Shown one piece after another: positions 9,240 to 46,085 of a stretch of 64,000 nucleotides of DNA. Below the pieces are notes generated by a model. That model was given only the letters and a program-made list of their open reading frames with translations. It was not told the origin of the DNA and searched no databases. The translations under genes and the position numbers were made by a program. This stretch comes from Acidimicrobiales bacterium. GTDB taxonomy: Bacteria; Actinomycetota; Acidimicrobiia; Acidimicrobiales; CATQHL01. The stretch covers positions 1,775,451 through 1,839,450 of the forward strand of contig OZ242194.1 of assembly GCA_965206165.1 (NCBI GenBank), read 5' to 3'. Numbering within the stretch: position 1 is the stretch's first letter; every line of letters starts with the position of its first letter.

Positions 9240-9406
9240 CGGGTCGTCGGGGCGCCGTTCAGGTACGGCTACACGGTCGGCGAGGCACCGGCGGACGGAA
9301 CGGACGGACTGGCTGCCCTATCGTCAATGGGGCAGAGGGCCCATCCCCGGCTCAGAACCGGGTACAGGCACCAGGCGCGGCGAGCGAGCACACAAGGACG
9401 GGCGCA

Positions 9407-10732
9407 ATGGCGGACGTGGTTCTTCCCCAACTGGGCGAGACGGTGACCGAGGGCACAATCATCCGCTGGATGAAGCGGGTCGGCGATGAGGTCCGCCGTG
9501 ACGAGCCGCTCTTCGAGATCTCCACCGACAAGGTCGACTCCGAGGTGCCGTCACCCGCAGCCGGCGTCCTGACCGAGGTGGTGGTGCCGGAGGGCGCGAC
9601 GGTGGAGGTGGGCACGCTGCTGGCGGTCATCTCCGACAGCGCGGCGGCCCCTGCGGCGGCCGCTCCTGAACCCGCGCCCGCCGCGGTGCCTACCCCGCCG
9701 CCTGCTGCCGCGCCACCGCCCGCGCCTGCTGCCGCGCCGCCGCCCGCACCCGAACCCGCGACGCCCGATATGACGCCGGAGCATGCCGAGGAGCGGTCTC
9801 AGCCGCGACTGCTGTCGCCCGTCGTCCGCAGGCTCGTCAATGAGCACGGCCTCGACGTCTCGACCATCGAAGGCAGCGGCGTGGGCGGCCGCATCACCCG
9901 GGCGGACGTGGAGCGCATCATCCGCGAGCGTCAGAGCGCCCCTGCCCAGACGCCGGGCTCGCCCTCAGCAGCGGCGCGTCCTGCCGCTCCCGCCCCCGAG
10001 CGCGCTCCCGACGCCGGAGGACCGCTCATCGTGCCGCTCAGCAGCATTCGCAAGACCATCGGTCGGCACATGGTCGCCTCCAAGGCCACGTCACCGCACG
10101 TGCTGACCGCCGTGGAGGTGGACTTCGAGGGCGTCGAGCGGGTGCGCAGGACGGCGCGGGCCGGCTGGCGCGCTCAGGAGGGCTTCAGCCTCACCTACCT
10201 GCCGTTCATCGCTCGCGCCACCTGCGATGCCATTGCCGATTTCCCGCAGATCAACGCCAGCATCGACGGCACCAACCTCGTCGTGCACCGCAGCGTGCAC
10301 CTCGCCGTGGCCGTCGACCTGGACTTCCAGGGGCTGCTGGCGCCGGTCGTCCGCGACGCCGAGACGAAACGACTGCGGGCCATCGCCCGCGAGGTGGTCG
10401 ACTTGGCGGCCCGCGCCCGCCGCAAGGAGCTCTCGGCCGCCGAGGTCACCGGGGGCACCTTCACCATCACCAACCCCGGCCAGTACGGCACGCTGATGCA
10501 GTTCCCGATCATCAACCAGCCGCAGGTGGCCATCCTCTCGACCGACGGCATCCGCCGGCGCCCGGTCGTCGTGACCGACGAGCTGGGCGACGAAGCCATT
10601 GCCATCCACTCGGTCGGGGTGCTGGCGCTGGCGTGGGATCACCGGGCTTTCGACGGGGCCTACGTGGCGGCGTTCATGGATCGTCTGCGGGACATCATCC
10701 AAACGCGGGACTGGGAAGCCGAGATCGTCTAG
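9407..10732 (+). CDS. sucB: 2-oxoacid dehydrogenase E2 dihydrolipoamide acyltransferase (DlaT/SucB type)
   Basis: The ATG at 9407 is in frame. Lipoyl domain (EISTDKVDSEVPSP), Ala/Pro linker, E3-binding domain (SPVVRRLVNEHGLD) and catalytic motif DHRAFDG. Confidence 0.9.
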   Translation: MADVVLPQLGETVTEGTIIRWMKRVGDEVRRDEPLFEISTDKVDSEVPSPAAGVLTEVVVPEGATVEVGTLLAVISDSAAAPAAAAPEPAPAAVPTPPPAAAPPPAPAAAPPPAPEPATPDMTPEHAEERSQPRLLSPVVRRLVNEHGLDVSTIEGSGVGGRITRADVERIIRERQSAPAQTPGSPSAAARPAAPAPERAPDAGGPLIVPLSSIRKTIGRHMVASKATSPHVLTAVEVDFEGVERVRRTARAGWRAQEGFSLTYLPFIARATCDAIADFPQINASIDGTNLVVHRSVHLAVAVDLDFQGLLAPVVRDAETKRLRAIAREVVDLAARARRKELSAAEVTGGTFTITNPGQYGTLMQFPIINQPQVAILSTDGIRRRPVVVTDELGDEAIAIHSVGVLALAWDHRAFDGAYVAAFMDRLRDIIQTRDWEAEIV

Positions 10733-31163: not shown

Positions 31164-31314
31164 GCAGCCGAGCCTAATGGACCGCGCTTGTCTACCTGGC
31201 CGTCAACCGCCCACCGAGCACCGTCGCGCTGCTGGCTGCCGGCAGGCGTGCGCGGCGGTGATCGGGCCGTCGCTCACCCGACGACGGATCCAAGCCCGCA
31301 GCGGTCTGCGCGGT

Positions 31315-32286
31315 TCAGTCGAAGAGGGTCGGCTGGGGTGGCGGCGATGGCCGGTCCGCCTCGAACGGCTCCCCGTCGGCACGTTCCGCGGGTTCCAGCA
31401 CCGCCGCTTCGAGTTCGTCGAGCGACGTGACCGGCACGGCTCCCCGTTCCTCGAGTTGCGCGTTGCCGGGACCCTCACCCGGCCCTCGCCAAACGGCGAC
31501 CCGACCGAAGCCACCTTTGAGAGCCTGCACGGCGCCCGACCAGGTGCCGCCCTTGTCCACTTCGCTGGCGACGACGAGGGTAAGCGCGGACAAGGCGTAG
31601 ATGAGCCGGTTGCGCCCCATGGCGTTACCGACGCTGAAGGGCGCTTCGGGGTTGTAGGGGGTGCACATGATCGTGCGGCCCTCGTGGATCGCCCGGCGCA
31701 CGTCGGGACTGCGGAGCTTGCGAACCAGCGACTCCGCCAGCACGCCCACCACAACTCCGCCCGCCTCGAAGGCGGCGTTCATTGCGATCTGATCCACCCC
31801 GCGGGCACCGCCGGACACGAGTGGGAGACCCAGCCGGGCCGCCAACTCCGCCGACGCCCCGGCAACGTCGGCGCCGTCGGGAGACACGTTGCGGCTGCCG
31901 ACGACCCCCACGCCTGGCTCGCCGAGCAAGTCGACGGCTCCCGCCGCGTAAAGCAACGCCGGCGCAGCCGACCCGAGCCGCTCGACGAACCGGCGAGGGT
32001 AGTGCTCGTCGAACGGTGTGAGCGTCGAGATGCCCGCCTGCCCGAGGCGCTCCAACTCGAAAGCGATCGCCGTTGCCCGGTCCAGCAACTCGACGATCTT
32101 CGCGGCCAGGTCGGCGGCCAGACCGTGCTCGCCGACAAGCTTGGTCTCGTCGGCGCCCAGAAGCAGGCTCGGCCCGCCGACCAGGTCGCACAGCCCCCAG
32201 AACTCCGACGCCTTCAGGGGCCGGACCTCGTCGTGGCCGATCCGGCTCAACAGCAGGATCGTCGCCAGCGAATCGTCGTGACTCAC
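31315..32286 (-). CDS. DprA/Smf-fold DNA-processing protein-like
   Basis: Rossmann-type DprA motifs GVVGSRNVSPDG, LVSGGARGVDQIAMNAA, GNAMGRNRLIYAL and GGTWSGA. The GTG at 32286 overlaps the upstream gene's TGA (GTGA), implying translational coupling. Confidence 0.85.
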   Translation of the reverse strand: MSHDDSLATILLLSRIGHDEVRPLKASEFWGLCDLVGGPSLLLGADETKLVGEHGLAADLAAKIVELLDRATAIAFELERLGQAGISTLTPFDEHYPRRFVERLGSAAPALLYAAGAVDLLGEPGVGVVGSRNVSPDGADVAGASAELAARLGLPLVSGGARGVDQIAMNAAFEAGGVVVGVLAESLVRKLRSPDVRRAIHEGRTIMCTPYNPEAPFSVGNAMGRNRLIYALSALTLVVASEVDKGGTWSGAVQALKGGFGRVAVWRGPGEGPGNAQLEERGAVPVTSLDELEAAVLEPAERADGEPFEADRPSPPPQPTLFD

Positions 32287-34448
32287 GTGACCGATCTCCC
32301 GGCCGTGTCGGCCAACGCGAACGGGTACACCGGGCCAGCGCCGGCCTCGCGGAGCGTCCCGCCCACGACCGTCAGCGTCCATTTGGAGTCGACGATGTCG
32401 TCCACGAGTAGAACCGGTTCGGAGGCGACGGTCCCACGAATATCGAATGCCTCCCGCACGTTTGCGTACTGTCGGCGGCTGTTCTGCATCGTCTTCTGGG
32501 GCTCAGTGTCCCGGATCTTCACGACGACATCTTCACACGGGAGCCCCAGCGCCGTTGCCAGCCGCTCGGCGAAGTCCGCCACCAACCCGGGATTCCGCAG
32601 CGAGGGCACGAAGGTCACCCAGGTCGGTGGTGGTGCCGGCTTCCAGCGATTCCGGATCAGATCCCCGGCAGCGCTGACGAGTTGGTCATCGAATCGCCCC
32701 AGTTCCTGCTTGCCCGCCCGGACGAGGCGTCCCCAGCCGCTGTCACCCCACACCGACAGCGCATGCCCCGGCTCGAGCCGATGGTCGGCTGCTATCCGAC
32801 CTCCACCCGGTATCTGCTTGCGGGGTTCAATGGCTCGCCCGGCTTTGCGTAGGTGATCCACTGCATGCTGGACGGTCGCCGGGTCGAATGGGATGGCGAG
32901 GCTGTCACCGGTGCAGTTGTCGCAGATCCCGCACGGCTCCGCCGTCGTATCGTCGAGATAGAGCCCGAGCAGTTGCATGCGACACCGGTCCGTGCGGACG
33001 TAGTCGAGCATCTGCCCCTGCTCGGTCCTGCGCAGGGCGGTTACCGACTCGACCCGGGCGTGGTCGAACGTCCATTCCCCGAGAGTTCGCAGCCAGCGGT
33101 TGCCGGCGCGCTCGACTGCACCGTCGACCTCCAGGTTCTTGAGAAGCGACTCCATCTGCGTCGACCGGACATTGAAGGATGCGAGCAGGTCGCCGGTGGA
33201 CATTGGCTCTGCCCGCTCCTCGAGGAGTGCCACGACGCGTTCAGCGAGATCAGGGGGAGGGAACGCCGAGCGGATGAAGTAGTCCTGGATGTCGGCGTCC
33301 TCGGTGCCGCGCAGCAGGATGCCCCAGGATGTATCGAGCGCCCGCCCGGCACGGCCGACCTGCTGGTAGTACGCAATCGGCGATCCCGGCGACTGGTAGT
33401 GGATCACGAAGGAGAGGTCGGGCTTGTCGAAGCCCATGCCGAGTGCCGAGGTGGCCACCACCGCCTTCACCTCGTTGGATAGGAGGGCCTGCTCGGTTTC
33501 GATCCGCTCGTCGGAATCCGTGCCGCCGCTGTAGGCGATGGCGTTGATTCCCACCGATCGCAGCCAGCCCGCAACCCGCTCGGTGTCGGCGACGGTGAGG
33601 CAGTACACGATGCCTGTCCCGTCCAGTTCCGGGATCACCTCGGCGAGCCAGGTCAGGCGCTCGGCCTGCGAGGGGATGTCGAGCGCGTGCAGTCGCAGGC
33701 CGGCGCGCCGCAGCGGACCCCGCACCAGGGGAAGACCCGAGCCGAGTTGTATGGCGACATCCTCAGTCACGCGGTCGTTCGCAGTTGCCGTGCAGCACAG
33801 GACGGGTACGCCGGCCGGCAGGAGCCCCAGAACACGGGTGATGCGCCGGTAGTCGGGGCGGAAGTCGTGGCCCCAGTCGGAGATGCAGTGCGCCTCGTCG
33901 ATAACAAGGAGGCCGCTGCGACGTCCGACCTCAGGCAGGACCTCGGTGCGGAACTTCGGGTTGGCCAGCCGCTCGGGCGAGATCAGCAGCAGGTCGACTA
34001 CGCCCTCGGCGAGCCTCCCCAGTACGAGATCCCAATCGGCTTGGTTGGTGCTGTTGATCGTCTCGGCTCGCACCCCCATCCGCTGCGCCGCCTCGATCTG
34101 GTTGCGCATGAGCGCCAGCAGCGGCGAGACCAGCAGCGTCGGCCCGGTGCCCCGGTCCCGCAGCATGCGGGTGGCGATGAAGTACACGGCGCTCTTGCCC
34201 CACCCGGTCCGCTGCACCAGCAGCACCCGCTCCCGCCGCCCCACCAGCCGCTCGATCGCCTCCAGCTGGCTCGGCCGAAAGTCCGCCCCCGGATCCCCGG
34301 TGAGCCGCCGCAGCAACTCCAGAGCCTCACGACCGAGCGAATCGCCCGCTGCCACTACGTCGACCAGTTGCCTCATGTCCCCAGAGCGTACGAACCTCCT
34401 GTGACACACCACGGTGTCGCGACCGAGTCGAACCGCGTGGCGTGCCAT
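32283..34448 (-). CDS. RecQ-family helicase fused to a C-terminal ComF/ComFC-like phosphoribosyltransferase-fold domain
   Basis: Walker A QRTGWGKS. RecQ DEAH box VIDEAHCISDWGHDFRPDY. Motif VI YYQQVGRAGR. Cys cluster CRMQ...CGICDNC. The C-terminal 170 aa or so carry TWVTFVPS, QKTMQNSRRQYANVREAF and PVLLVDDIVDSKWT. The start is ATG 34448 (GGAG upstream) or ATG 34376. Confidence 0.85.
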   Translation of the reverse strand: MARHAVRLGRDTVVCHRRFVRSGDMRQLVDVVAAGDSLGREALELLRRLTGDPGADFRPSQLEAIERLVGRRERVLLVQRTGWGKSAVYFIATRMLRDRGTGPTLLVSPLLALMRNQIEAAQRMGVRAETINSTNQADWDLVLGRLAEGVVDLLLISPERLANPKFRTEVLPEVGRRSGLLVIDEAHCISDWGHDFRPDYRRITRVLGLLPAGVPVLCCTATANDRVTEDVAIQLGSGLPLVRGPLRRAGLRLHALDIPSQAERLTWLAEVIPELDGTGIVYCLTVADTERVAGWLRSVGINAIAYSGGTDSDERIETEQALLSNEVKAVVATSALGMGFDKPDLSFVIHYQSPGSPIAYYQQVGRAGRALDTSWGILLRGTEDADIQDYFIRSAFPPPDLAERVVALLEERAEPMSTGDLLASFNVRSTQMESLLKNLEVDGAVERAGNRWLRTLGEWTFDHARVESVTALRRTEQGQMLDYVRTDRCRMQLLGLYLDDTTAEPCGICDNCTGDSLAIPFDPATVQHAVDHLRKAGRAIEPRKQIPGGGRIAADHRLEPGHALSVWGDSGWGRLVRAGKQELGRFDDQLVSAAGDLIRNRWKPAPPPTWVTFVPSLRNPGLVADFAERLATALGLPCEDVVVKIRDTEPQKTMQNSRRQYANVREAFDIRGTVASEPVLLVDDIVDSKWTLTVVGGTLREAGAGPVYPFALADTAGRSVT

Positions 34449-34576
34449 CTGGAGTCTCCGAGTGGGGTGATTGCCTACTAGTCCCGTCACTCTGGTCTAG
34501 CTCTGGCCCAGTGCGCGAGGAGCGAGCCGATTTGCACGTTTGCAGGCTCAGCTACGTCGCGCTGAGGAAAGATCGG

Positions 34577-35290
34577 TCAGGTCTGCGGTTCGAACCCGGG
34601 TAGATGAATTTTCTCGATTCGATCTGTACTTCGCTTCGCCCAGCGCATGATCTCGACCGCGCTGGGGTGATCCGTCGCGTGGAACATCTGGTACTGCGGG
34701 CGACCGCTGCTCGGATCTATGATCGTCTGTGGGAATACGTACTGATAGCCAAGCCCACGAAGACGATCGGCGAACCGGCATATGAGTGCACTGGATGGAC
34801 GTTGACTCTCCCATAAGTCCCACCAAGCATCTCGCCCACCCAACATGCGATCAAGCGTTTGGGGGCTGAACGACTCGGGATACCGGATACGGTCACGGGG
34901 CCATAGCCGGTTGATCACCTGATGCGAATTGAAGAGAATCCACAGTTCGACTTTGCAGCGCTTGGAGTTCTCTCCCGGCGGCGGTGGCACATAGGTCTTC
35001 CAGGCAGCAAGTGCCTCGATTGTTCGCCAGTCAAGCTGCGTCGACTCCTGATCTAAAAGAGCGAAACAGGGACGCTGCTCGTCAAGGTTGCCGCTGTCCA
35101 GAAGTGCGGGAATCACCACGTTGCAGTCTCCCGGGAGGATGTGGATCCGGCTGCGTTGTCGGGCACTCAAGGACTGAATTGCAGTTTCGAGCGTCTGGAG
35201 ATGCGTACTATTCTTTTCGACGAGGTAAAGATGAGCAAATGCCCGGCTCGTGGCTGCGATAAGAGAGGATCCATCGGAATCGAAAGGGTC
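34577..35290 (-). pseudogene. tcmP: TcmP (three-Cys-motif partner protein)-like gene, 5'-truncated by the IS30 end
   Basis: The reading frame continues out of the IS30 left end. Gene-derived sequence starts at DPFDSDGSSLIAATSRAFAHLYLVEKN and runs 237 aa to the stop. It lacks the N-terminal 50 aa or so of the family. Confidence 0.65.
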
Positions 35291-36033
35291 GGCCAGTTCC
35301 ATCGGTCGGTGCACGGTTCCGGTCATGATGACCGGTGCCAACACAAGCACCAACCGATGGAGGTACCAGCATGCCAGGCGCACCGCTGGAGTTGCACGAA
35401 CGCGAGGAGATCTTCCGCGCGCTGGTCGAGGATCTGCAGGCGGGTTGGGCCGCTATCGGTCGTCGGGTGGGTCGACATCCCACGACGGTGGCCCGGGAGA
35501 TCAACGCCGGGGGCGGCCGTGAGCGCTACGGGCCGGCGGCGGCGCAGCGGCGCGCCGAGGTGGCGCGGCGACGGGCGCGGCGGCGCCGCTTGGAGGCGCC
35601 GGGGCCGCTGCGGGACCGCATCTGCGCTGAGTTGCGCCGGGGGCGTTCCCCCGCGGCGATCCGCGCGGACCTCGCCGCGGAGGGCGTGGAGGCGCCGCCG
35701 TGCGTCGAGACCGTCTACCAGGCGCTCTACAGCGGTGCCCTGGACGTGAAACCCGCTGAGTGTCTGCGCCGCCGCCGCCGGCGCAGACGCTGCCGGCAAC
35801 AGCGCAACCCCCGGTCGCGGCCGGGCGGGCCGAACATCGCCGCCCGCCCCGCGGCGGTGAACGAGCGCGCCGAGGCGGGCCACTGGGAGGTCGATCAGAT
35901 CATCGGCGCCTACAACCGGTCCTCGATGATCTGGTTGACCGAACGCCAAAGCCGCTACCTGATACCGGTCACCATGCCCGACGGTTACGACGCCGACGCC
36001 GTCCTCGCCGGCCTCATCGAGGGCCTCGACACC
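35291..36033 (+). mobile_element. IS30-family element copy A: left inverted repeat plus 5' two-thirds of the transposase, truncated
   Basis: IRL is GGCCAGTTCCATCGGTCGGTGCACGG at 35291. The transposase ATG is at 35371 (MPGAPLELHEREEI..., HTH, then HWEVDQIIG...MIWLTERQSRYL). Homology to copy B stops after ...GLDT at about 36033. Confidence 0.8.
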
Positions 36034-36812
36034 CCGGCGTCTTCGGCGGGGTCGACACGCACAAGCACACCCACGTCGCAGCGGTCCTCGACGCCGCCGG
36101 GCGTCTGCTGGGCACCGCAGCATTCGACGCGGACACCGCCGGCTACGCCGCGCTGCTGGAGTGGCTCAGGGGCCACGGCAGCGTCGAGCGCGTCGGTGTG
36201 GAGGGGACCGGCTCCTACGGCGCGGGCCTCGCCCGCAGCCTCGCAGCCGCGGACGTCGACGTCGTCGACGTGAACCGCCCCAACCGCCAGATGCGCCGCC
36301 GCCGCGGCAACACCGACACCGTCGACGCGGAGGCAGCAGCGCGGGCCGCGCTCAACGGCGACGCCGCGGTGGCGCCCAAGAGCGCCGACGGGTGCGTCGA
36401 GGCGATCAGGACCCTCGGCGTGGCGCGCCGCTCCGCGGTCAAGGCCCGCACCGTTGCCGCCAACCAGATCGACGCTGTCGTCGTGACCGCCCCCGAGCAC
36501 CTCAAAGACCGCCTGCGGACGCTGAACACAGCCCGCACCGTGGAGGCCTGCGCCCGGCTGCGACATCCCGGCACAGACAGCGATCCTGTGCTCGCCGCGG
36601 CCAAGCAGGCGCTGCGCTCCCTGGCCCGCCGCCACCAGGCGCTCACCGCGGAGATCAAGCACCTCGACGCCGAGCTGCGCCGCCTGTGCGAACGAGTCAA
36701 CCCGGCGCTGCTGGGCGCTCGCGGCGTCGGCGCTGAGACCGCGGCTGCGCTGCTCGTCGCCGCCGGGGACAACCCCGACAGGATGCGCAGCGAGGCGTCG
36801 TTCGCCGCCCTC
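36034..36812 (+). mobile_element. IS110-family transposase fragment (both ends missing)
   Basis: The fragment begins inside the DEDD domain (GVFGGVDTHKHTHVAAVLD) with no start codon. It carries VGVEGTGSYG and ends in the Transposase_20 region at ...SEASFAAL, where the sequence switches to AT-richer DNA. Confidence 0.8.
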
Positions 36813-37106
36813 TTGGTTCCGCCAATCCCGAAGCCTCGACGATAATGTAATTGAGACTGCTACCCCGGTGGGCGAACTGGTCGATGGCGTCGTCAAGGTT
36901 TTCTCCTTCCAGGCTGCAGCAGATGCAGCTGTTGCTCAGATCCAAAGCCACGTCGGTCTGGAAGAAACGAGCATCGAGTCGATGTTGACCTCGCCGAAGT
37001 CGTTGATAATGGCGCCGAGTTTCAGGCGCTGGTCGTTCTTAAGGAGATGGTTGAGCAGGCTGGTTTTGCCGGCTCCCACGATGCTGGTTAATATTTTCCC
37101 AGTCTT
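36813..37106 (-). pseudogene. CobW/G3E-family P-loop GTPase remnant (frameshifted, 3'-truncated)
   Basis: The minus strand reads ...ILTSIVGAGKTSLLNHLLKNDQRLKLGAIINDFGEVNIDS, then needs a frameshift near 36962 to continue as ...DLSNSCICCSLEGENLDDAIDQF...YIIVEASGLAEP. No convincing start codon is present, and the remnant ends at the IS110 junction. Confidence 0.65.
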
Positions 37107-37153
37107 TATTATCTGTCAGTTTGAAGATTCGACACTTTGTTCTTGTATGTTTG

Positions 37154-37191
37154 TGACTGCCGCTCTCCTATTAAAAAGAGAGCGGCAGTCA
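37154..37191 (-). terminator. Perfect 14-bp stem hairpin 30 nt downstream of the acidic-repeat gene (putative terminator)
   Basis: TGACTGCCGCTCTC-(10 nt A/T loop)-GAGAGCGGCAGTCA was read directly. There is no classical U-tract after the stem. Confidence 0.45.
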
Positions 37192-37220
37192 ATCCGGGGC
37201 AATCAACCTTAGCGTAATGC

Positions 37221-38327
37221 CTAGAAATCAGTCCATCTTCCTGACACCCATTCACCTTCTCTGGGATGATCAAGGTGATAGCATGCAGGAATAAATATAT
37301 CGAAGTACCATTCTTCTCCGTATTCGAAACAAGCCAGCTGAGCCGTCAAGAACTCGAATTCCGCGAACGTTTGACCGACACACATGCCCCACGTTACATC
37401 CCACTCGCAATTATGCTGGTTACCCAAATCGCGTATGGCGATTTGGGTATCTTCGGGGTGATTGTGGCATTGCTTATACTCATCCTCGTACCAGCCGCAA
37501 GCAGTTGTAAAATCATGGATCCTCATCACTTCCTCCCAAAAATCACTATTGGGAGGAAGTGGACCTAGATTTTCTGGAGCGGCGGTCGTCGTAGTCGTCG
37601 GCACTTCGATATCCTCCTCTTCCTGTTGATCCTCAACCGGAGCGGCGGTCGTCGTAGTCGTCGGCTCTTCAACCGGAACGGTCGTCGTAGTCGTCGGCAC
37701 TTCCGGGTCCTCCTCTTCCTGTTGATCCTCAACTGGAGCGGTGGTCGTCGTAGTCGTCGGCTCTTCAACCGGAACGGTCGTCGTAGTCGTCGGCGGTTCC
37801 TCGGGACCCTCCTCTGGTGATCTGGTGCCGAGCGGTTCCTCGGCATCGTCTTCTACCTGCTGGTCTTCAGCCGGAGCGGCGGTCGTCGCGGTCGCCGGCG
37901 CCTCCTCGGCATCGTCTTCTACCTGCTGGTCTTCAGCCGGAGCGACGGTCGTCGCGGTCGCCGGCCCTTCCGAGTCCTCCTCTTCCTGCTGATCTTCAAC
38001 TGGAGCGACGGTCGTCGCGGTCGCCGGCCCTTCCGAGTCCTCCTCTTCCTGTTGATCTTCAACTGGAGCGGTGGTCGTCGTGGTCGTCGGCCCTTCCGAG
38101 TCCTCCTCTTCCTGCTGGTCTGTGCCGACTTGTTCCGGTTCGGAGACTGTTTGACCCGTTGTCTCGACTCCCTGCTCTTCCTTTTCCGCATCATCGTCGG
38201 TCAACTGCCAGGCGGCGTAAACGCCTGCTGCGACAATGATGATGCCGGCGGCGGTCCACAGGGCTCCTTTCAAGGACAAAGAGATGCCTTTGAACATGGA
38301 TTTACTTCCCGCGTTTCTGGTATCCAT
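37221..38327 (-). CDS. Membrane-anchored hyper-acidic Thr/Glu/Asp repeat protein with a Cys-rich C-terminal domain (orphan)
   Basis: N-terminal TM helix (ALWTAAGIIIVAAGVYAAW). About 250 aa of 21-aa-type acidic repeats (APVEDQQEEEDSEGPATATTV). A C-terminal domain of about 110 aa holds 6 Cys and many Trp/Tyr. Codon third positions are far more A/T-rich than in the neighbours. An alternative start at ATG 38297 follows GGGAAG. Confidence 0.7.
   Translation of the reverse strand: MDTRNAGSKSMFKGISLSLKGALWTAAGIIIVAAGVYAAWQLTDDDAEKEEQGVETTGQTVSEPEQVGTDQQEEEDSEGPTTTTTTAPVEDQQEEEDSEGPATATTVAPVEDQQEEEDSEGPATATTVAPAEDQQVEDDAEEAPATATTAAPAEDQQVEDDAEEPLGTRSPEEGPEEPPTTTTTVPVEEPTTTTTTAPVEDQQEEEDPEVPTTTTTVPVEEPTTTTTAAPVEDQQEEEDIEVPTTTTTAAPENLGPLPPNSDFWEEVMRIHDFTTACGWYEDEYKQCHNHPEDTQIAIRDLGNQHNCEWDVTWGMCVGQTFAEFEFLTAQLACFEYGEEWYFDIFIPACYHLDHPREGEWVSGRWTDF
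37577..38125 (-). repeat. In-frame tandem coding repeats (about 63-bp units and variants) within the acidic protein gene
   Basis: Repeated blocks such as GGTCGTCGCGGTCGCCGGCCCTTCCGAGTCCTCCTCTTCCTG(C/T)TGATCTTCAACTGGAGCG are visible on the plus strand. Confidence 0.8.
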
Positions 38328-38337
38328 ATCGTGTGTC

Positions 38338-39396
38338 GGCCAGTTCCATCGGTCGGTGCACGGTTCCGGTCATGATGGCCGGTGCCAACACAAGCACCGA
38401 CCGATGAAGGTACCAGCATGCCAGGCGCACCGCTGGAGTTGCACGAACGCGAGGAGATCGGCCGCGCGCTGATGGCTGACCCGATGGCGAGTTGGGCGGC
38501 GGTCGCCCGCCGGGTGGGTCGTCACCCGTCGACGATCGCCCGGGAGGTCGACCGCGGGGGTGGTTGTGGCCGCTACGGACCGGCGACGGCGCAGCGGCGC
38601 GCCGAGCGGGCGTCGCGCCGCCCGCGGCGGCGCCTCTTGGCGGTTCGGGGCGCCGCTGCGGGAACGGATCGCCACCGAGTTGCGCCTGGGGCGCTCCCCG
38701 GTGGCGATCCGGTCGGACCTCGTCGCCGAGGACGCGCCGGGGCGGCCCTGCGTGGAGACCATCTACCAGGCGATCTATGACGGCGCGCTGGGGGTGCGCC
38801 CGAGTGAGTGTCTGCGCAGCCGCCGCCGGCGGCGGCGACCGCGACAATGCCGCAGGTCAACGAGGCGCCCGACGCCGGCGAACATCTCCAGGCGACCAGA
38901 CGCGGTCAACGACCGCCGCGAGGGCGGGCACTGGGAAGGCGACCAGATCATCGGCGCCAACAACCGCTCGTCGATGATCTGGCTCACCGAACGCCAAAGC
39001 CGCTACCTGATACCGGTCACCATGCCCGACGGCTACACCGCCGCCGCCCTCGCCGGCCTCATCGAAGGCTTCGACACCATCCCCGACCGGCTGCGCCGCA
39101 GCGTGACGTTCGATCAAGGCCCCGAATGGGCCAACTGGAGCACCCTGGCCGCCCACTACAGCATCGACGTGTGGTTCTGCGACCCCCACTCGCCGCGCCA
39201 ACGCGGCCAGATCGACAACCTCAACCGCCAAGCGCGCTGATGGTTCCCCCGCGGCACCGACCTCCGCCTCGTCACCCCTGCCCAAGCAGAACACGCCGCC
39301 AACATCATCAACAACCAGCGCCGCCGCAGCCTCAACTACCGAACACCAGCAGAACTGTACGCTGCCCTCACCGTGCACTGACCACTAGAACTGGCC
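38338..39396 (+). mobile_element. IS30-family element copy B, complete ends but inactivated transposase
   Basis: IRL is GGCCAGTTCCATCGGTCGGTGCACGG (38338). IRR (39371-39396) reverse-complements to GGCCAGTTCTAGTGGTCAGTGCACGG. Total length is about 1.06 kb. It is similar but clearly not identical to copy A. Confidence 0.85.
38418..39381 (+). pseudogene. IS30-family transposase with a frameshift (about 38630) and an in-frame TGA (39238)
   Basis: The N-terminal HTH part lies in the frame of ATG 38418. The DDE part (HWEGDQIIG, MIWLTERQSRYL, VTFDQGPEW, CDPHSPRQRGQ) lies in the frame of ORF 38560..39240. After the TGA the same frame continues as WFPRGTDL...RTPAELY. Confidence 0.8.
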
Positions 39397-39601
39397 GTGG
39401 GTTGTTGATGGACAGTGCGATTCGTGAGGATCCGTCCAGTGTCTCGTTTGTATAGCGTTCCCTATTTTCTGGTTGGCCGCCGAAGATATCAAGATAGAGC
39501 ACTTCGGTGGACTTCCCTTTCGTCGTCGTGGTGAACTTATTGAGATACTCGCGCAACATGGCGAGTTTGCCTCGTGTCCAGAAGCCCCAGTATCTTCCCA
39601 T
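39397..39601 (-). pseudogene. tcmP: TcmP-like gene, N-terminal 68 codons only, cut by the IS30 copy B right end
   Basis: MGRYWGFWTRGKLAMLREYLNKFTTTTKGKSTEVLYLDIFGGQPENRERYTNETLDGSSRIALSINNP, after which the frame reads into the IS IRR. The ATG at 39601 lies 4 nt after the Gp37/Gp68 stop. Confidence 0.65.
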
Positions 39602-39604
39602 CGC

Positions 39605-40351
39605 TTATGTGTAGAGAGGTGTCGGCATCTCGTCGTAACGCTTGCCGTCGAGGTCGCGTCCTCTCGCCTTGGGGGTTCGCCCTCCCCATTGCTTGAAGAA
39701 GAAGGCCACGCCGGCCGGTCCGCACTGGTCTCGGAGGTCGCGGACCCAGACTTCCTCCATGGAACGGGCGCCGGGGCCGCTCTCGCCGCCGGCGATCAGC
39801 CAGTCGATGTCGGTGAGGTCGAGATCGGAGAGTGGTCCCAGTAGCGGCTCGGCGCTGACGAAGCGGACCTTGGCGCCGACTCGGCGGAGGTGGTCGACGC
39901 GGAACGCGTAGCGCTCGGTCTCGACGCTCACGCCCATCCAGACGTTGCCGGGCCAGTCCAAATCGCCGGAGAGGTTGAGCAACCTGCGGGAGCGTTTGGT
40001 GAGGATCTGGTAGGTGTGCTGCGGCGTACCGGCCATCACCTCGAACACCTGCCGGATGAAGTCGAGCGGCACGTCGGGGTGGAAGAGGTCGCTCATCGAG
40101 TTGACGAACACCAGCCGCGGTGAGCGCCACGTGTGGGGGATGGCCAGGGTGTCGGGGTGGAGCGTCAGGGCGAAGCCGGGGCCGCTGGTGCGGGGGTCGC
40201 CGTCGTTGCGGTACTTGGGCTGGCCCATGGCCTTGAGCCGCTTGGCGAGCGCGAGCGCATAGCAGTTGTCGCAGCCCGGCGACGTGCGGTCGCAACCCGT
40301 GGTCGGATTCCACGTCGTCTCGGTCCACTCGATGCCCGAACGGTCTGCCAC
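39605..40351 (-). CDS. Phage Gp37/Gp68 (DUF5131) family three-Cys-motif protein
   Basis: The GTG at 40351 follows AAGGAAGAGGA. Motifs: SGIEWTETTWNPTTGCDRTSPGCDNCYA (three-Cys motif), SMSDLFH, ILTKR, SAEPLLGP and IAGGESGPGAR. Confidence 0.85.
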   Translation of the reverse strand: MADRSGIEWTETTWNPTTGCDRTSPGCDNCYALALAKRLKAMGQPKYRNDGDPRTSGPGFALTLHPDTLAIPHTWRSPRLVFVNSMSDLFHPDVPLDFIRQVFEVMAGTPQHTYQILTKRSRRLLNLSGDLDWPGNVWMGVSVETERYAFRVDHLRRVGAKVRFVSAEPLLGPLSDLDLTDIDWLIAGGESGPGARSMEEVWVRDLRDQCGPAGVAFFFKQWGGRTPKARGRDLDGKRYDEMPTPLYT

Positions 40352-40872: not shown

Positions 40873-41622
40873 TCACTGATCGGCGTCGTCGCGACGATGA
40901 CCCCGTAGTCTTCCGGCCTCGGTTCTACGCGCTCGAATGGCCATGCCAATGCCTTCTTGATCTGTTCCCACATCGGTTTCCGTCCTCTCGTCTGCGTGAA
41001 TGAACTCGAGGTACTCGATGTCCTCCCAGCGGAGGAGAACACCGATGTCATCGTGCGCCGCTGCCTGCCAGTCACCTCGCAGTTCGCCCGTTCGAGGGTC
41101 GACATCGATGGTAGCGGCCAGGTACAGGTCCTGCGGTTCGGGGTAGCGCGCCACTACGGACTGCCGACCGTTTACTTCGGCGAACGCGCCCCCGAGCCAA
41201 GTGCCCGATTTCAGCCGACATCGCACCCATCCCCTGCGCCGGTGTTGGAACAGGTGATCCCACGCGCGCGGCGCGCTGCCGATCCCGGAGAGAGCACGCG
41301 TCCACCTGCGGCCTTCCCTGATCCCGCGGCCAAGGATCGTGCCCGCCGTGGTGGGCACGGCCACGTAGGCAAGGGGCACGACCGCCATCCATCTCGGCAG
41401 GGGTTGCCCCGCCACGAACGCGCTCCAGTGGTTGCCGTACAGCCAATACAGCGGCGTAGAGAACAGGGCGAAGAAGACTGCCGAACCGCCGACGAACCGA
41501 AGAATCCGGTCCTTGCGTTGAATGCCGTACTGGCCGGCCAGCCGCTCAAAGGCCCAGGCGGACAGCGCTCCGGGGAGGAAGGCCACGCCGAGCACGGCGG
41601 TTGCCTGGAAGATCGATGACAC
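40873..41622 (-). CDS. Hypothetical membrane protein, tentatively DUF6338-like
   Basis: The N-terminal half has 3-4 hydrophobic helices. The C-terminal half has the pattern PRAWDHLF...VRCRLKSGTWLGG...YPEPQDLYL. The start GTG 41622 (GAAGGGA upstream) or ATG 41700 is uncertain, and the family assignment is from memory only. Confidence 0.55.
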   Translation of the reverse strand: MSSIFQATAVLGVAFLPGALSAWAFERLAGQYGIQRKDRILRFVGGSAVFFALFSTPLYWLYGNHWSAFVAGQPLPRWMAVVPLAYVAVPTTAGTILGRGIREGRRWTRALSGIGSAPRAWDHLFQHRRRGWVRCRLKSGTWLGGAFAEVNGRQSVVARYPEPQDLYLAATIDVDPRTGELRGDWQAAAHDDIGVLLRWEDIEYLEFIHADERTETDVGTDQEGIGMAIRARRTEAGRLRGHRRDDADQ

Positions 41623-41771
41623 CGACTGTCCCTTCGCCTCGTCTCGTCCTGTCCGGGGAAGCCAGGGGAAGCGGTTGCCACTTGGAATCGACCGCAGCAT
41701 ATGGGCCGGACCGATCGGCCACAGCGGGCAGACCGACGCGGGCACGCCGATAGGAGCGTCGTGCCCGGTGC

Positions 41772-41972
41772 TTGAGGCTTCTGACAGTCCCCTACGAGGC
41801 GAAGTTCACTCCCACGGGCGGCGGATACGTCATCGAGTCTGCAGTCGTCACCGGTGACCAAGACACATACAGTCGCTCTTCGGATGAGGACGAGTCACAG
41901 TTTCTCGAGGAGCTCATCGCCGGTTTCCTGCTGGTCCGGCGGGGTGAGTTGCCCTTGGAGGCTGCTGAGTAA
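41772..41972 (+). pseudogene. Fragment homologous to the N-terminal domain of the macro-domain protein at 43800..44747
   Basis: The fragment reads ...FTPTGGGYVIESAVVTGDQDTYSRSSDEDESQFLEELIAGFLL. The full-length gene reads [43 protein letters not shown]. The fragment lacks both the upstream part and the macro domain. Confidence 0.55.
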
Positions 41973-42572
41973 TTCGCCAGGTTCCCTCGGGTGCGTCGAC
42001 GTTCCCGTACTCGTTGTCTCCCCAGCATTGAATGGTGTTGTCGGTGCGCAGCGCGTACGAGTGCGGCCTGCCGGCGATCGCTCAGAGATCGTCTTCGTGC
42101 TCGGCTCCGAACGCCTCCAGGGCGGCCCGAAATGTGGCGCGGGGGACGAGCGTGGCGTCGCCCCTTTCCTCCAGTTCCTCGGCGTAGCGGAGTATGGCGT
42201 CCGATGCGGCGGCCCGGGCGGGCGGCGCGCTGCGGCGCGGCGCAGGATCGGCGGCATCCTGATGTGCGCGGGCTCGTCGGCATCGGGTTCGGCCATGATC
42301 CGACTATCGAGCCCGGCGCCGGCCGGCCGTCGGGCGCTCATGTCGTTTGCGCAATCGTCCTCGTCGATGAAAGCGTCCTCGTCCCCGTACGCATACATGG
42401 CATCGCGTAGCGTGCTATGTGATATCAGCGAAACGTCGCGCTTTACCTCAAGCTCGTCGGCGAGGCAGAGCACGGCATCGCGTTGCGGACCGAGTCGCAT
42501 GCGGTTCGCCGCGCGTCGCAGGATCGGCGGCATCTCGATGTGCGCGGGTTCGGTCAAGTCAGGTGCCGTCAC
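41895..42572 (-). CDS. Hypothetical ORF made of two tandem paralogous modules, the second frameshifted
   Basis: The GTG at 42572 follows GAAGGAG. Module 1 reads VTAPDLTEPAHIEMPPILRRAANRMRLGPQRDAVLCLADELEVKRD... Module 2, from ATG 42295, reads MAEPDADEPAHIRMPPILRRAAARR... Its homologous continuation (ASDAILRYAEELEERGD...EHEDDL, stop about 42082) lies in another frame. Confidence 0.4.
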   Translation of the reverse strand: MTAPDLTEPAHIEMPPILRRAANRMRLGPQRDAVLCLADELEVKRDVSLISHSTLRDAMYAYGDEDAFIDEDDCANDMSARRPAGAGLDSRIMAEPDADEPAHIRMPPILRRAAARRPPGPPHRTPYSATPRNWRKGATPRSSPAPHFGPPWRRSEPSTKTISERSPAGRTRTRCAPTTPFNAGETTSTGTSTHPREPGELLSSLQGQLTPPDQQETGDELLEKL

Positions 42573-42701
42573 GTTGCGACTCCTTCATCGGCATCCAGAA
42601 TATCGAGCACGGCGCCTAGTGCCAGAGACATCGGAACGTGGCTCGGCTCTCCAGACCGAGACCCTGCGCCAACCGGCGGCACTGCCCGCCCCGATTGCCG
42701 G

Positions 42702-42917: not shown

Positions 42918-43181
42918 TCAGCCCGGTCGGTAGACCTCTCGGCGGTGCTGGACTCGGTGGATCAGGACGACCTCATCGACTTCGAGGATCTCGTAGATGA
43001 TGCGGTAGTCGCCGCGGCGGGCGGACCGAAGACCGTCGAGTTCGCCGACGAGTGGCTTCCCGAGCCGCTGAGGATTCTCGGCGATCGGCCCGAAGATGGT
43101 CTCCAGAGCGGCGTGCCGCACCTTTTCGGGCAGCCGGTTGAAATGGCGGAGACCTTCGGGCGTGATCTCGACTTCGTACAC
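42918..43181 (-). CDS. RelE/ParE-family type II toxin
   Basis: 87 aa. ...LDGLRSARRGDYRIIYEI..DEVVLIHRVQHRREVY is typical of RelE/StbE. It lies 10 nt downstream of a Phd/YefM gene. Confidence 0.85.
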   Translation of the reverse strand: MYEVEITPEGLRHFNRLPEKVRHAALETIFGPIAENPQRLGKPLVGELDGLRSARRGDYRIIYEILEVDEVVLIHRVQHRREVYRPG

Positions 43182-43190
43182 CCGGTCTTC

Positions 43191-43454
43191 TCAGACCTGA
43201 TCGCGCAAGCGCAGCAGCTTTCCCTCGGAGGCTTCTCGGCGCGACTTCCGCAGCGACTCCATGAGCGCGTCGTCTTGGAGTATGTCGAGGGATTCCTCCA
43301 GGGACTCGAGATCGTCGGGACTCACGAGCACGAACGAGGGTCGACCGTTGCGGGTCACCAGGATGCGGTCGTGCTGGCGCTCCACCCGGTCGGCGAGTTC
43401 GGATAGATGGGCCTTGACCTCCGAGAACGGGAGTGTGTCGCTCACAGGCACCAA
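43191..43454 (-). CDS. Phd/YefM-family antitoxin
   Basis: 87 aa. ...FSEVKAHLSELADRVERQHDRILVTRNGRPSFVLVSPDDLESLEESLDIL is a classical Phd/YefM pattern. Confidence 0.85.
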   Translation of the reverse strand: MVPVSDTLPFSEVKAHLSELADRVERQHDRILVTRNGRPSFVLVSPDDLESLEESLDILQDDALMESLRKSRREASEGKLLRLRDQV

Positions 43455-43504: not shown

Positions 43505-43728
43505 GGCCGGTTCCATCGGTCGGTGCACGGATCCGGTCATGATGACCGGTGTTTTGAGTGACACCGACCGATGGAGGTACCAGCATGCCTGGCGCTGCGC
43601 CGGGGTTCCGGTTGCACGAACGTGAGCACATCTTTCGCGCGCAGGCCGAGGATGTGGCGGGGAACAAGTCGGCCGCCGAGACGGTGTTCTGCAGGTCTGG
43701 ACGGGTACCCACAGTGACTATTGACTAG
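43505..43728 (+). mobile_element. Solo left-end remnant of a third, more diverged IS30-family element
   Basis: GGCCGGTTCCATCGGTCGGTGCACGGATCCGGTCATGATGACCGG matches the IRL regions of copies A and B. The ATG at 43585 opens a 47-codon stub (MPGAAPGFRLHEREHIFRA...) that ends at TAG 43726. Confidence 0.7.
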
Positions 43729-43799: not shown

Positions 43800-44747
43800 G
43801 TGACTGCGCGTCGAGGCGACTGGGAGGCCCACCCGCTCACGCACCCGGAGTCGATCCCTTCGCCCACCCGGATCTGGACCTCCGCAGAGATGGACCACAT
43901 CCGAGAGGGCTACATCCCCAGCATGATGGAGGAGAAGTGGTTCATCTTCATGGAGGGGAATCGCTTGTTAGCGCATCGCAGTTGGACAGGACTGGGTGTC
44001 TATGCGGCGAGGTTCGCCCCGGTCGACGGTGGGTACGTCATCAGCTCCGCGGTCGTCACCGGTGACAGGTCCGAATACAAGCGCTCTTCGGATCAGGACG
44101 AATCACTGATTCTCGAAGTGCTCATCGCCGGTCACCTACTGGGTCAATCGCTCTCAGAGTCACAGCTGGCCGACAAGAGCCCGCATCTTCGCTGGGAACT
44201 GGCCGTACCCAACATTCCGAAGGAGATGTTCTTACCGCACGTTGTCGAGATGGAGCGCCCGGAGCCGAACCTCTACCTGGGCGACATCACCGAGCTGGAC
44301 GTCGACGCAATCGTGAATGCGGCTAACTCCACCCTTCTCGGAGGCGGTGGGGTCGACGGGTCCATCCATCGGGCCGCCGGCCCCGAACTCCTCGAGTACT
44401 GCCGCGCCCTGGGGGGCTGCGACACCGGGCAGGCCAAGATCACGCCGGGTTTCAACCTCGCATCCCGGTGGGTGATCCACACCGTCGGACCCGTCTGGCG
44501 CGGTGGCACCCACGGTGAGCCGGAGCTTCTCGCCTCCTGCTACCGGGAGTCACTGGCCCGCGCCGACGAGGTCGGGGCCGAGACCGTCGCCATTCCGGCG
44601 ATCTCGACGGGGGTCTACGGGTACCCGATCGCAGCGGCCGCCGCCATCGCCGTCGAGACCGTTCGTTCCACGCCCACGGACGTGTCCGACGTCATCTTCG
44701 TCGCCTTCAACCAGGAAACCTTCGACGCCTACTCCGCCCTCGGCTGA
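43800..44747 (+). CDS. Macro-domain (MacroD/YmdB-type ADP-ribose-binding/hydrolase) protein with an uncharacterised N-terminal domain of about 130 aa
   Basis: The C-terminal half carries [34 protein letters not shown] and [14 protein letters not shown] did not recognise the N-terminal half. The start is GTG. Confidence 0.85.
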
Positions 44748-45381: not shown

Positions 45382-45468
45382 CTCCACACCTGGGAGAGTG
45401 CCGAGCAATCGACGGCGGGCGTGGTTCGAACCCCAGCGTGTTCGGGAGTGAGATGTTATGATGCGCAT

Positions 45469-45705
45469 ATGCGCACCACAGTGTCGATCGATGATGAGGT
45501 CTACGAGCAAGCCCGGCGGATCGCATTCGAATCGCGCCGGACGCTCGGCGAGGTGATCAACGAACTGCTCGCGGAGGGACTCAAGGTCGTTGCCCCAGCA
45601 CCGGCGCGTCGCCGTCTCGGGCAGCTGCGAGGCACCATCAGGATCGCCGACGACTTCGACGACACGCCTCGCGAAGTGCTGGACTCGCTCGACGCCGCGC
45701 TCTGA
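45469..45705 (+). CDS. vapB: VapB-type (ribbon-helix-helix) antitoxin
   Basis: The product begins MRTTVSIDDEVYEQARRIAFESRRTLGEVINELL. The stop overlaps the vapC ATG (ATGA). Confidence 0.8.
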   Translation: MRTTVSIDDEVYEQARRIAFESRRTLGEVINELLAEGLKVVAPAPARRRLGQLRGTIRIADDFDDTPREVLDSLDAAL

Positions 45706-46085
45706 TGGCGCGACTCCTGCTCGACACCCACGTTCTGCTCTGGGCCAACGAGGCGCCGGAACGGCTCTCCGCCGAAGCAGTCGCCGCGCTGGAGGACCCG
45801 GCCAATGACCTGCTGGTGTCGTCGGTCTCGGTCGCCGAGATCGAGATCAAGCGACGGCTCGGCAAGCTGGCCACGGAGCACAGTTGCCGGACACTCGGAT
45901 CACAACTCGGCGCGATCTGGCTCGACCTGACTGCTGCTCACGCCATGGGGCTGCGCACGCTCCCCAATCTTCATGCCGATCCGTTCGACCGGCTCCTCAT
46001 CGCGCAGGCGCTGGCTGAGGAGTGCACACTCGTTACCGCCGACAAGACGGTGCTCGCCTACCCGCTGCTGACGCTCACCGCGTAA
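45705..46085 (+). CDS. vapC: PIN-domain ribonuclease toxin VapC
   Basis: LLLDTHVLLW, SVAEIEIK, and DPFDRLLIAQA...LVTAD supply the PIN acidic residues. Confidence 0.88.
   Translation: MARLLLDTHVLLWANEAPERLSAEAVAALEDPANDLLVSSVSVAEIEIKRRLGKLATEHSCRTLGSQLGAIWLDLTAAHAMGLRTLPNLHADPFDRLLIAQALAEECTLVTADKTVLAYPLLTLTA

Follow-up and report, generated by a model that had tools for sequence, protein, structure and literature searches.

The stretch of DNA analyzed here, called the window, comprises 64,000 nucleotides (nt) of an Acidimicrobiales bacterium (contig OZ242194.1, positions 1,775,451 to 1,839,450). It carries an intact gene of the DUF5131 (Gp37/Gp68) family whose partner gene, tcmP, is split into two pieces by insertion sequence (IS) material. 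The split tcmP is an IS-scarred chimeric pseudogene, the result of ordinary defence-island decay and not a new system. The locus is probably a decayed DUF5131/TcmP candidate defence module, situated in a hot spot upstream of the PsyrTA operon, in which the N-terminal remnant is of a foreign tcmP type (hereafter W type) and the C-terminal remnant of the resident type, found intact on the related contig L001. The location of the module inside an island of defence, toxin-antitoxin and IS genes, proposed in the original prediction from the letters of the window, was borne out. The three genes or gene pieces at the center of the analysis are:

34577-35290, minus strand: tcmP C piece (L001 type), 237 codons and stop, TIGR04474 profile positions 54-257, starting at the left inverted repeat (IRL) of the IS30-family element A (IS30-A)
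39397-39601, minus strand: tcmP N piece (W type), 68 codons, TIGR04474 profile positions 2-67, ending at the right inverted repeat (IRR) of the IS30-family element B (IS30-B)
39605-40351, minus strand: DUF5131 gene (Gp37/Gp68, three-Cys, radical S-adenosylmethionine (SAM)-like), 248 amino acids (aa), PF07505, intact

The DUF5131 gene matched PF07505 over positions 2-243 of the 243 of the profile (323.9 bits for a cutoff of 28.9, E = 8e-97), and its three-Cys motif CX6CX2C, GCDRTSPGCDNCYA, is located in the N-terminal part of the protein, as C-x6-C-x2-C in TGCDRTSPGCDNCYA. Its TAA stop codon is followed by 3 nt (GCG) and by the ATG of the tcmP N piece at 39601, so that the predicted coordinates of an intact three-Cys gene with the tcmP start directly behind it hold. 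The N piece reads into ...GAACTGGCC, the IRR of IS30-B, which ends at 39396, and the C piece abuts GGCCAGTTCC..., the IRL of IS30-A, from 35291; the predicted junctions at 39396/39397 and 35290/35291 and the lengths of 68 and 237 codons were recovered as such. Rather than a single complete open reading frame (ORF), tcmP is a gene split by a 4.1-kb IS-bounded unit. With the TIGR04474 profile (TcmP, three-Cys-motif partner protein; curated cutoff 53 bits), the C piece scored 105.3 bits (E = 5e-30), above the cutoff, and the N piece 46.8 bits (E = 3e-12), under the cutoff because it is a fragment of only 68 residues. The C piece has no internal stop or frameshift and lacks the N-terminal 87 residues including the FAGTG motif; the N piece contains a SAM-binding-like motif, DIFGGQP. 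Since the former is devoid of FAGTG and the latter of the rest of the fold, TcmP is predicted to be non-functional in the window.

The two pieces had been described as non-complementary, and the alignment to the TcmP profile confirmed it: they overlap at TIGR04474 positions 54-67 and are not contiguous halves. In a hand alignment on the DGSS-IA segment, the overlap covers 18 codons (T51-P68 of the N piece and D32-F49 of the C piece), in which 20/54 nt are identical. By BLASTP, residues 8-62 of the N piece correspond to residues 47-99 of P0001, the intact 324-aa TcmP of L001, and the C piece begins at residue 88/89 of the same protein. The C piece is 99% identical to P0001 at the protein level and 99.2% identical to the L001 tcmP gene at the nucleotide level, and W-type and L001-type TcmPs share 27-33% protein identity (27% over the C part). 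The GC content is 51% for the N piece, 56% for the C piece and 68% for the window. Because so few nucleotides of the 18-codon overlap are identical, the pieces are assigned to two different tcmP types and not to the halves of one gene. This is in agreement with the original proposal of two tcmP genes; their description as paralogs is unproven, and the W type looks foreign. If an IS-bounded unit had simply been inserted into one tcmP gene, the 3-bp direct repeat that surrounds the unit in the related contig L006 would be accounted for. The probability of this explanation is negligible in view of the overlapping profile coordinates (2-67 and 54-257), of the low identity in the 18 codons and between the two TcmP types, and of a merged sequence that is out of frame after two codons.

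The material lying between the two pieces is composed as follows:

35291-36039, plus strand: IS30-A, 5' 749 bp only, IRL at 35291, NF033563 E = 5e-33
36040-36870 (right boundary approximate), plus strand: IS110-like transposase fragment, NF033542 profile positions 2-257 of 343, PF01548
36871-38337, minus strand: low-GC cargo between the IS30 elements, 55% GC
38338-39396, plus strand: IS30-B, 1059 bp, complete ends, NF033563 E = 8e-48

The IS110-like fragment, whose own C-terminus is missing, replaces the 3' third of IS30-A, and the IS30-B transposase gene contains a +1 nt frameshift at 38653. Both fragment proteins recur on the 23-kb contig L006 (ENA analysis ERZ21829562), which was found by cluster look-up. 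On this contig the order is psyrT, C piece, IS30-A, cargo, IS30-B, N piece, ISL3, DUF5131, DUF6338 and hsdM; both junctions of the window are present and both IS30 elements are intact, with flanks that are 2-3% different. The two L006 transposases are full length (321 and 320 aa; NF033563 E = 8e-65 and 3.6e-55). IS30-A of the window is 98.5% identical to its L006 counterpart (1061 bp), the homology ending at 36039, and IS30-B is 96.9% identical to the intact L006 copy. The N piece (205 nt) is identical in both contigs and the C piece differs at 7/714 nt. L006 evidently represents a different strain and, as the same junctions are found in this diverged contig, the joint should predate the split of the two strains. 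The window version is more decayed than L006, with IS30-A cut at about 36039 and IS30-B frameshifted at 38653.

The concern, raised with the original prediction, that the structure could be an assembly chimera is thereby answered. The window comes from a metagenome-derived contig, and strain mosaics occur at IS clusters, so that strains with a W-type and an L001-type tcmP might have been joined through shared IS sequence. Such a joining is very improbable here: L006 has both junctions on one contig together with the flank differences and an additional ISL3 element, and IS30-A and IS30-B are too divergent to be collapsed. Misassembly of the structure is accordingly judged very unlikely from the comparison of the two contigs. 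The additional ISL3 element of L006 (8632-10000, transposase 8702-9904) is flanked by an 8-bp duplication corresponding to window positions 39634-39641; it interrupts the final codons of DUF5131, and this point coincides with the limit beyond which the slot alleles of related loci diverge.

IS30-A and IS30-B had been taken for copies of the same element. IS30-family ends are indeed present at both junctions, with IRL and IRR matching at 23/27 positions, but the two elements, compared over their full length in L006, are ∼81% identical and are two different IS30-family elements. The ensemble resembles an IS30-family composite transposon in that ∼1.5-2.2 kb of lower-GC cargo lie between two elements of direct orientation, that an IRL and an IRR form the outer ends, and that the unit is flanked in L006 by a 3-bp direct repeat (GTG...GTG; GTC...GTG in the window); a direct repeat was seen for neither IS30-A nor IS30-B taken singly. 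It departs from such a transposon by the just 81% identity of its elements and by flanks which are not the halves of one target, and its mobility as a unit is putative; in the window, one element is moreover truncated and the other frameshifted. The cargo contains an ORF of 368 aa (37221-38327, minus strand) with an N-terminal hydrophobic segment, a Cys/Trp-rich C-terminal part and long acidic Thr/Glu/Asp/Gln-rich tandem repeats of 63/96-nt units (families D1/D4); the protein had no match in Pfam.

The chromosomal frame of the scar was defined with seven related contigs (L001-L004, L006, L011 and L012), six of which (all but L006) were reached via relatives of the C piece and of DUF5131; the named relatives of these proteins belong to the sponge-associated Acidimicrobiia 'Ca. 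Poriferisocius' and 'Ca. Poriferisodalis'. The shared gene order is DUF6338, DUF5131, a slot, the helicase-phosphoribosyltransferase gene (psyrT), the DprA-like gene (psyrA), Meth_synt_2, FxsA and PhyH, and in the seven contigs the DUF5131 and helicase genes are separated only by the tcmP slot of 0 to ∼1.9 kb. Collinearity of the window with L001 extends from 31264 to 35291, the end of IS30-A, and begins again at 39643. With L002 and L004, collinearity ends at ∼34410 and resumes at 39646 (L002) or 39621 (L004). The variable cassette therefore begins ∼40 nt before the end of DUF5131 and reaches as far as the helicase start. Both remnants thus appear to sit at native junctions of one hot spot, from which no chromosomal genes are missing.

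These results do not support the original proposal that two separate Gp37/TcmP loci were joined with loss of the intervening DNA. Each flank of the scar belongs natively to the same locus, so that no joining of two distant loci has to be invoked. IS30-family elements cause adjacent deletions and fusions, and a fusion of two loci of the same chromosome, each hit by an IS30 element, would be in keeping with the exact IS30-family ends at both junctions and with fragments of different tcmP genes. We consider it quite unlikely, since the flanks form one syntenic locus with only a tcmP slot between DUF5131 and psyrT, since recombination between two IS elements would leave one hybrid IS and not two divergent elements with a cargo, and since a second DUF5131/TcmP copy was not detected within the 64-kb window of the 3.67-Mb genome.

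Another possibility is a tandem ancestor, DUF5131-tcmP-W ... DUF5131'-tcmP-L001-psyrT, in which each tcmP would have been hit by a different IS30 element and the DNA between them replaced or deleted. Defence hot spots do gather tandem cassettes, and this arrangement accounts for two IS30 elements at near-homologous positions as well as for native junctions on both sides. It is nevertheless unlikely: none of the seven related loci has more than one module, two independent insertions at most 18 codons apart would be required, and the non-L001 nucleotides at the IRL and the GTG...GTG repeat are left unexplained. Recurrent site-specific targeting of tcmP by IS30 was considered and rejected, as the shorter TcmPs (P0025, P0026, P0073 and others; 250-269 aa) result from alternative starts and their N-terminal sequences are normal. 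The three IS30 left ends of the window (35291, 38338 and 43505) have no common flank that could be a shared target motif. The third of these belongs to another IS30-family remnant, a solo left end of ∼210 bp (43505-43714) beside a Phd/ParE pair (42918-43454), which is absent at the syntenic L001 site. Both the tandem ancestor and the fusion of two loci agree less closely with the data on synteny and junctions than the recombination of a W-type module into an L001-type locus, which is described below.

The source of the N piece was searched among W-type TcmPs. The N piece is 69-76% identical to W-type TcmPs of ∼325 aa from other Actinomycetota, and intact genes of this size were found, among the GTDB species genomes, in four other actinobacterial metagenome-assembled genomes. 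The W-type genes of L014-L016 read through and those of L013 and L017 have a frame break. A DUF5131 gene of their own, 67-73% identical to that of the window, is present upstream in 3/5 W-type loci, none of which is near PsyrTA; one W-type gene is found in an integrase/TrwC context (L005). Close database relatives of the N piece are limited to its identical copy in L006; next comes a 70%-identical gene, whose frameshift-ridden contig has integrases and a TrwC fragment. A search for an intact close W-type allele in a database of 5.8 billion proteins gave just the fragment cluster of the window and one 70%-identical protein. From these comparisons, the W type looks like a foreign cassette.

The route that we favour would comprise four steps. 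Firstly, an intact W-type tcmP would have received the unit IS30-A-cargo-IS30-B, a 3-bp (CAC) target duplication being formed. Secondly, the disrupted W module would have recombined into an L001-type locus. Thirdly, one of the joints would be a homologous crossover inside the conserved DUF5131 gene, near 39643, which would give a W-type tail from 39642 downwards; in an alignment of DUF5131 tails, the last ∼38 nt of the gene (39605-39642) are indeed allele-specific and of W type. Fourthly, the other joint would be illegitimate, at a CCCTTT microhomology beside the IS30-A end. We take this route to be the known process of homology-facilitated illegitimate recombination. Later decay would include the truncation of IS30-A by IS110, the frameshift of IS30-B and, in the sister strain, the ISL3 insertion.

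Two observations speak for this route, the sequence at the restored site and the bases beside the IRL. When the unit and one repeat are removed from L006, the sequence in gene sense reads AAC AAC CCA CCC TTT, i.e. N-N-P-P-F in frame, which is the consensus of intact W-type genes at the same point, as in L014 (AAC CCA CCC TTT ACC). Past the restored P-F, the sequence is of L001 type and out of frame. The codon beside the IRL is CAC in L006, GAC in the window and GTC in the intact L001 gene, and the rest of the C piece is ∼1% different. At 35288-35290, the base next to the IRL differs between the two strains (C and G, respectively) and the next base differs from the intact allele, so that two changes are found within 3 nt at the IRL junction.

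Several observations weigh against this reconstruction. An intact or unit-carrying W-type allele was found neither at this locus nor elsewhere. The 3-bp repeat, which has a 1 in 64 probability of occurring by chance, and the in-frame restoration of P-F were both noticed post hoc, and the repeat is imperfect in the window (GTC and GTG). For an illegitimate joint to fall within 3 nt of an IS end would require a coincidence, or else a donor fragment that stopped at this point. The cargo shows ∼80% identity when the window is compared to L006, with flanks at 97-98%, a difference which is unexplained. The search for a second module covered 64 kb of the 3.67-Mb genome. Finally, the defence role ascribed to DUF5131/TcmP is a database prediction.

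The content of the slot differs between the related contigs:

L001: 324-aa TcmP (P0001), 99% identical to the C piece
L002/L003: 380-aa TcmP-like protein with a GMT-like winged helix-turn-helix (wHTH), and a 193-aa gene
L004: 307-aa TcmP and a 182-aa gene
L011/L012: empty, the DUF5131 stop abutting or overlapping the psyrT start

The tcmP position probably behaves as a swappable slot in this lineage, exchange being anchored in DUF5131 and psyrT. The gene for P0001, which is the intact C-piece ortholog, overlaps in L001 with the stop of DUF5131. In L011 and L012 (7001-9897 in both, syntenic with window positions 32283-40351), DUF5131 is intact and no tcmP is present; P0123, the DUF5131 cluster of these two contigs, has 55 member sequences and is among the largest of the matches. 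In L004 (10001-14624), the DUF5131 gene has a frameshift close to its 3' end and psyrT is distributed over three ORFs, as a result of decay or of assembly indel errors. The 'GMT-wHTH' of the L002/L003 protein was considered as a link to Gamma-Mobile-Trio (GMT) elements and discarded, the GMT paper mentioning neither TcmP nor DUF5131.

The ratio of nonsynonymous to synonymous substitution rates (dN/dS) of the DUF5131 gene against its relatives is 0.10-0.18. The value obtained between the window and L006 is not valid as proof of selection on DUF5131 after the loss of tcmP, the alleles having been recombined: as DUF5131 differs at 38/693 nt between the two contigs, far more than the two tcmP pieces, its alleles would have been exchanged by recombination after the event. 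Since DUF5131 stays intact upstream of psyrT and under purifying selection whatever the slot holds (at least four TcmP types, the chimera or nothing), it might work with PsyrTA or regulate it, TcmP being an exchangeable accessory or specificity cassette. We regard this idea as decidedly improbable. The neighbouring genes concerned are:

31315-32286 (ORF open to 32382), minus strand: PsyrA (DprA-like/SLOG), PADLOC PsyrA E = 1e-79, PF02481
32283-34376 (ORF open to 34490), minus strand: PsyrT (RecQ-like helicase-phosphoribosyltransferase), PADLOC PsyrT, apparently intact
40873-41745, minus strand: DUF6338, upstream neighbour of DUF5131 and right edge of the hot spot, PF19865 E = 3e-28; it also adjoins in L002, L003, L006, L011 and L012

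PsyrT matched its PADLOC model over positions 7-686 of 689 (E = 1.8e-271) and contains the Pfam domains DEAD, Helicase_C, RecQ_Zn_bind and Pribosyltran; PsyrA is called as 323 aa in L001, L002 and L011. With both models matched almost end to end and co-oriented overlapping genes in the T-then-A order, the operon described beforehand as RecQ-PRT/DprA is identified as PsyrTA on the basis of these models, and both genes look intact. PsyrTA is a system separate from DUF5131/TcmP, which is found directly upstream of it only in this lineage. Whether this adjacency recurs in other genomes, a check proposed with the original prediction, was examined with 80 diverse PsyrT loci from JGI metagenomes, of which 48 have at least 1.5 kb of upstream sequence. 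PsyrA is downstream of PsyrT in 53/64 loci; DUF5131 was directly upstream of PsyrT in none of the 48, and within 6 kb in two survey loci only, on the downstream side in both. A general functional linkage between TcmP and PsyrTA was consequently rejected, the TcmP relatives of other taxa also being found in unrelated contexts.

The DUF5131/TcmP pair had been regarded as having no assigned function, a statement that has to be amended, as the pair now matches the PADLOC-DB v2 candidates PDC-M41 and PDC-M30. The DUF5131 gene is recognized as PDC-M41B (361 bits) and PDC-M30B (341 bits), P0001 as PDC-M41A (74.7 bits) and the L002 slot protein as PDC-M30A (217 bits). These candidate systems are complete in L001 and L002 and incomplete in the window, with component B intact and component A in two fragments. 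The window agrees with them by the full-length DUF5131 match and by adjacent co-oriented genes with 3-nt or overlapping spacing, and elsewhere, including in defence islands and conjugative elements, the pair is also a self-contained module. The differences are a TcmP that is split and chimeric here and a DUF5131 that is kept even with an empty slot (L011/L012). PDC-M41 and PDC-M30 are candidate systems for phage resistance; in the searchable literature, DUF5131, TcmP and PDC-M41 gave database or table mentions only and no experimental report.

An AlphaFold model of P0001 (40 homologs) was obtained with a pLDDT of 81 and a pTM of 0.81. When it was submitted to Foldseek, 228 matches with E ≤ 0.001 were found, and the top 50 listed were all class I methyltransferases (for instance Hen1 and RlmJ). 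TcmP is thus modeled as a class I SAM-methyltransferase fold, with a Rossmann-type alternation of strands and helices and a conserved FxGxG-like motif (FAGTG / FGGQP) where motif I would be. The query TM-scores are modest (0.37-0.45) and denote a resemblance to enzymes such as RlmJ and the Hen1 methyltransferase domain, not membership. A sequence search of the PDB with TcmP gave no match to any chain, and the same search with DUF5131 gave no meaningful match. The DUF5131 family is classed among the radical SAM subgroups (PMC9477430), and 4Fe-4S binding and SAM cleavage by the radical-SAM-like DUF5131 protein are putative. As a working model, the intact DUF5131/TcmP pair may be a SAM-using module for nucleic-acid modification or sensing.

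The distant TcmP relatives that lie beside DUF5131 occur between hsdM/ApeA and an AAA_15/DUF3226 pair, in a conjugative element and beside a DUF222-HNH gene. DUF5131 is present in 180 phage records, mostly of temperate actinophages. In the Gordonia phage Fairfaxidum (L098, 2492-4433), DUF5131 has the integrase on one side and the immunity repressor on the other, and is convergent with the adjoining methyltransferase gene. Only three phage records contained a TcmP-like gene, and two of these are of one phage, BaxterFox; in this Gordonia phage (L099, 1068-3478), the TcmP-like gene comes right after the immunity repressor, apparently without DUF5131. Such positions would be typical of prophage-carried defence genes. 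Another helicase-TcmP neighbourhood is that of Sinorhizobium meliloti, where the TcmP gene SMa2243 is listed as sharing a putative transcription unit with the Hna defence helicase (SMa2245), both being ∼2-fold up in nolR+ cells (PMC12445080, Table 1).

Other features were noted in the island. Two pairs of diverged direct repeats are present, 41792-41934 with 44000-44142 (76%) and 42209-42305 with 42485-42581 (70%); the first links a short ORF to the N-terminal part of a Macro-domain protein gene (43800-44747). These repeats may be duplicated or exchanged gene modules. An antitoxin-like ORF (45421-45705) and an overlapping ORF (45705-46085) resembling a PIN/VapC-type toxin were recognized by eye from the sequence, and this pair adds to the Phd/ParE pair of the island.

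The split tcmP itself is an ordinary pseudogene scar that has no functional meaning as such. Many bacteria carry the DUF5131/TcmP pair, which so far appears in databases just as a candidate for defence, and the locus offers a natural series at one position: a slot without tcmP, slots with four types of TcmP, and the chimera scarred by IS elements. This series shows that tcmP turns over much faster than DUF5131, that DUF5131 persists without TcmP, and that the boundaries of the exchange are the DUF5131 tail and the psyrT start. It should be useful for the choice of PDC-M41/M30 test constructs and for the study of cassette exchange in defence hot spots.

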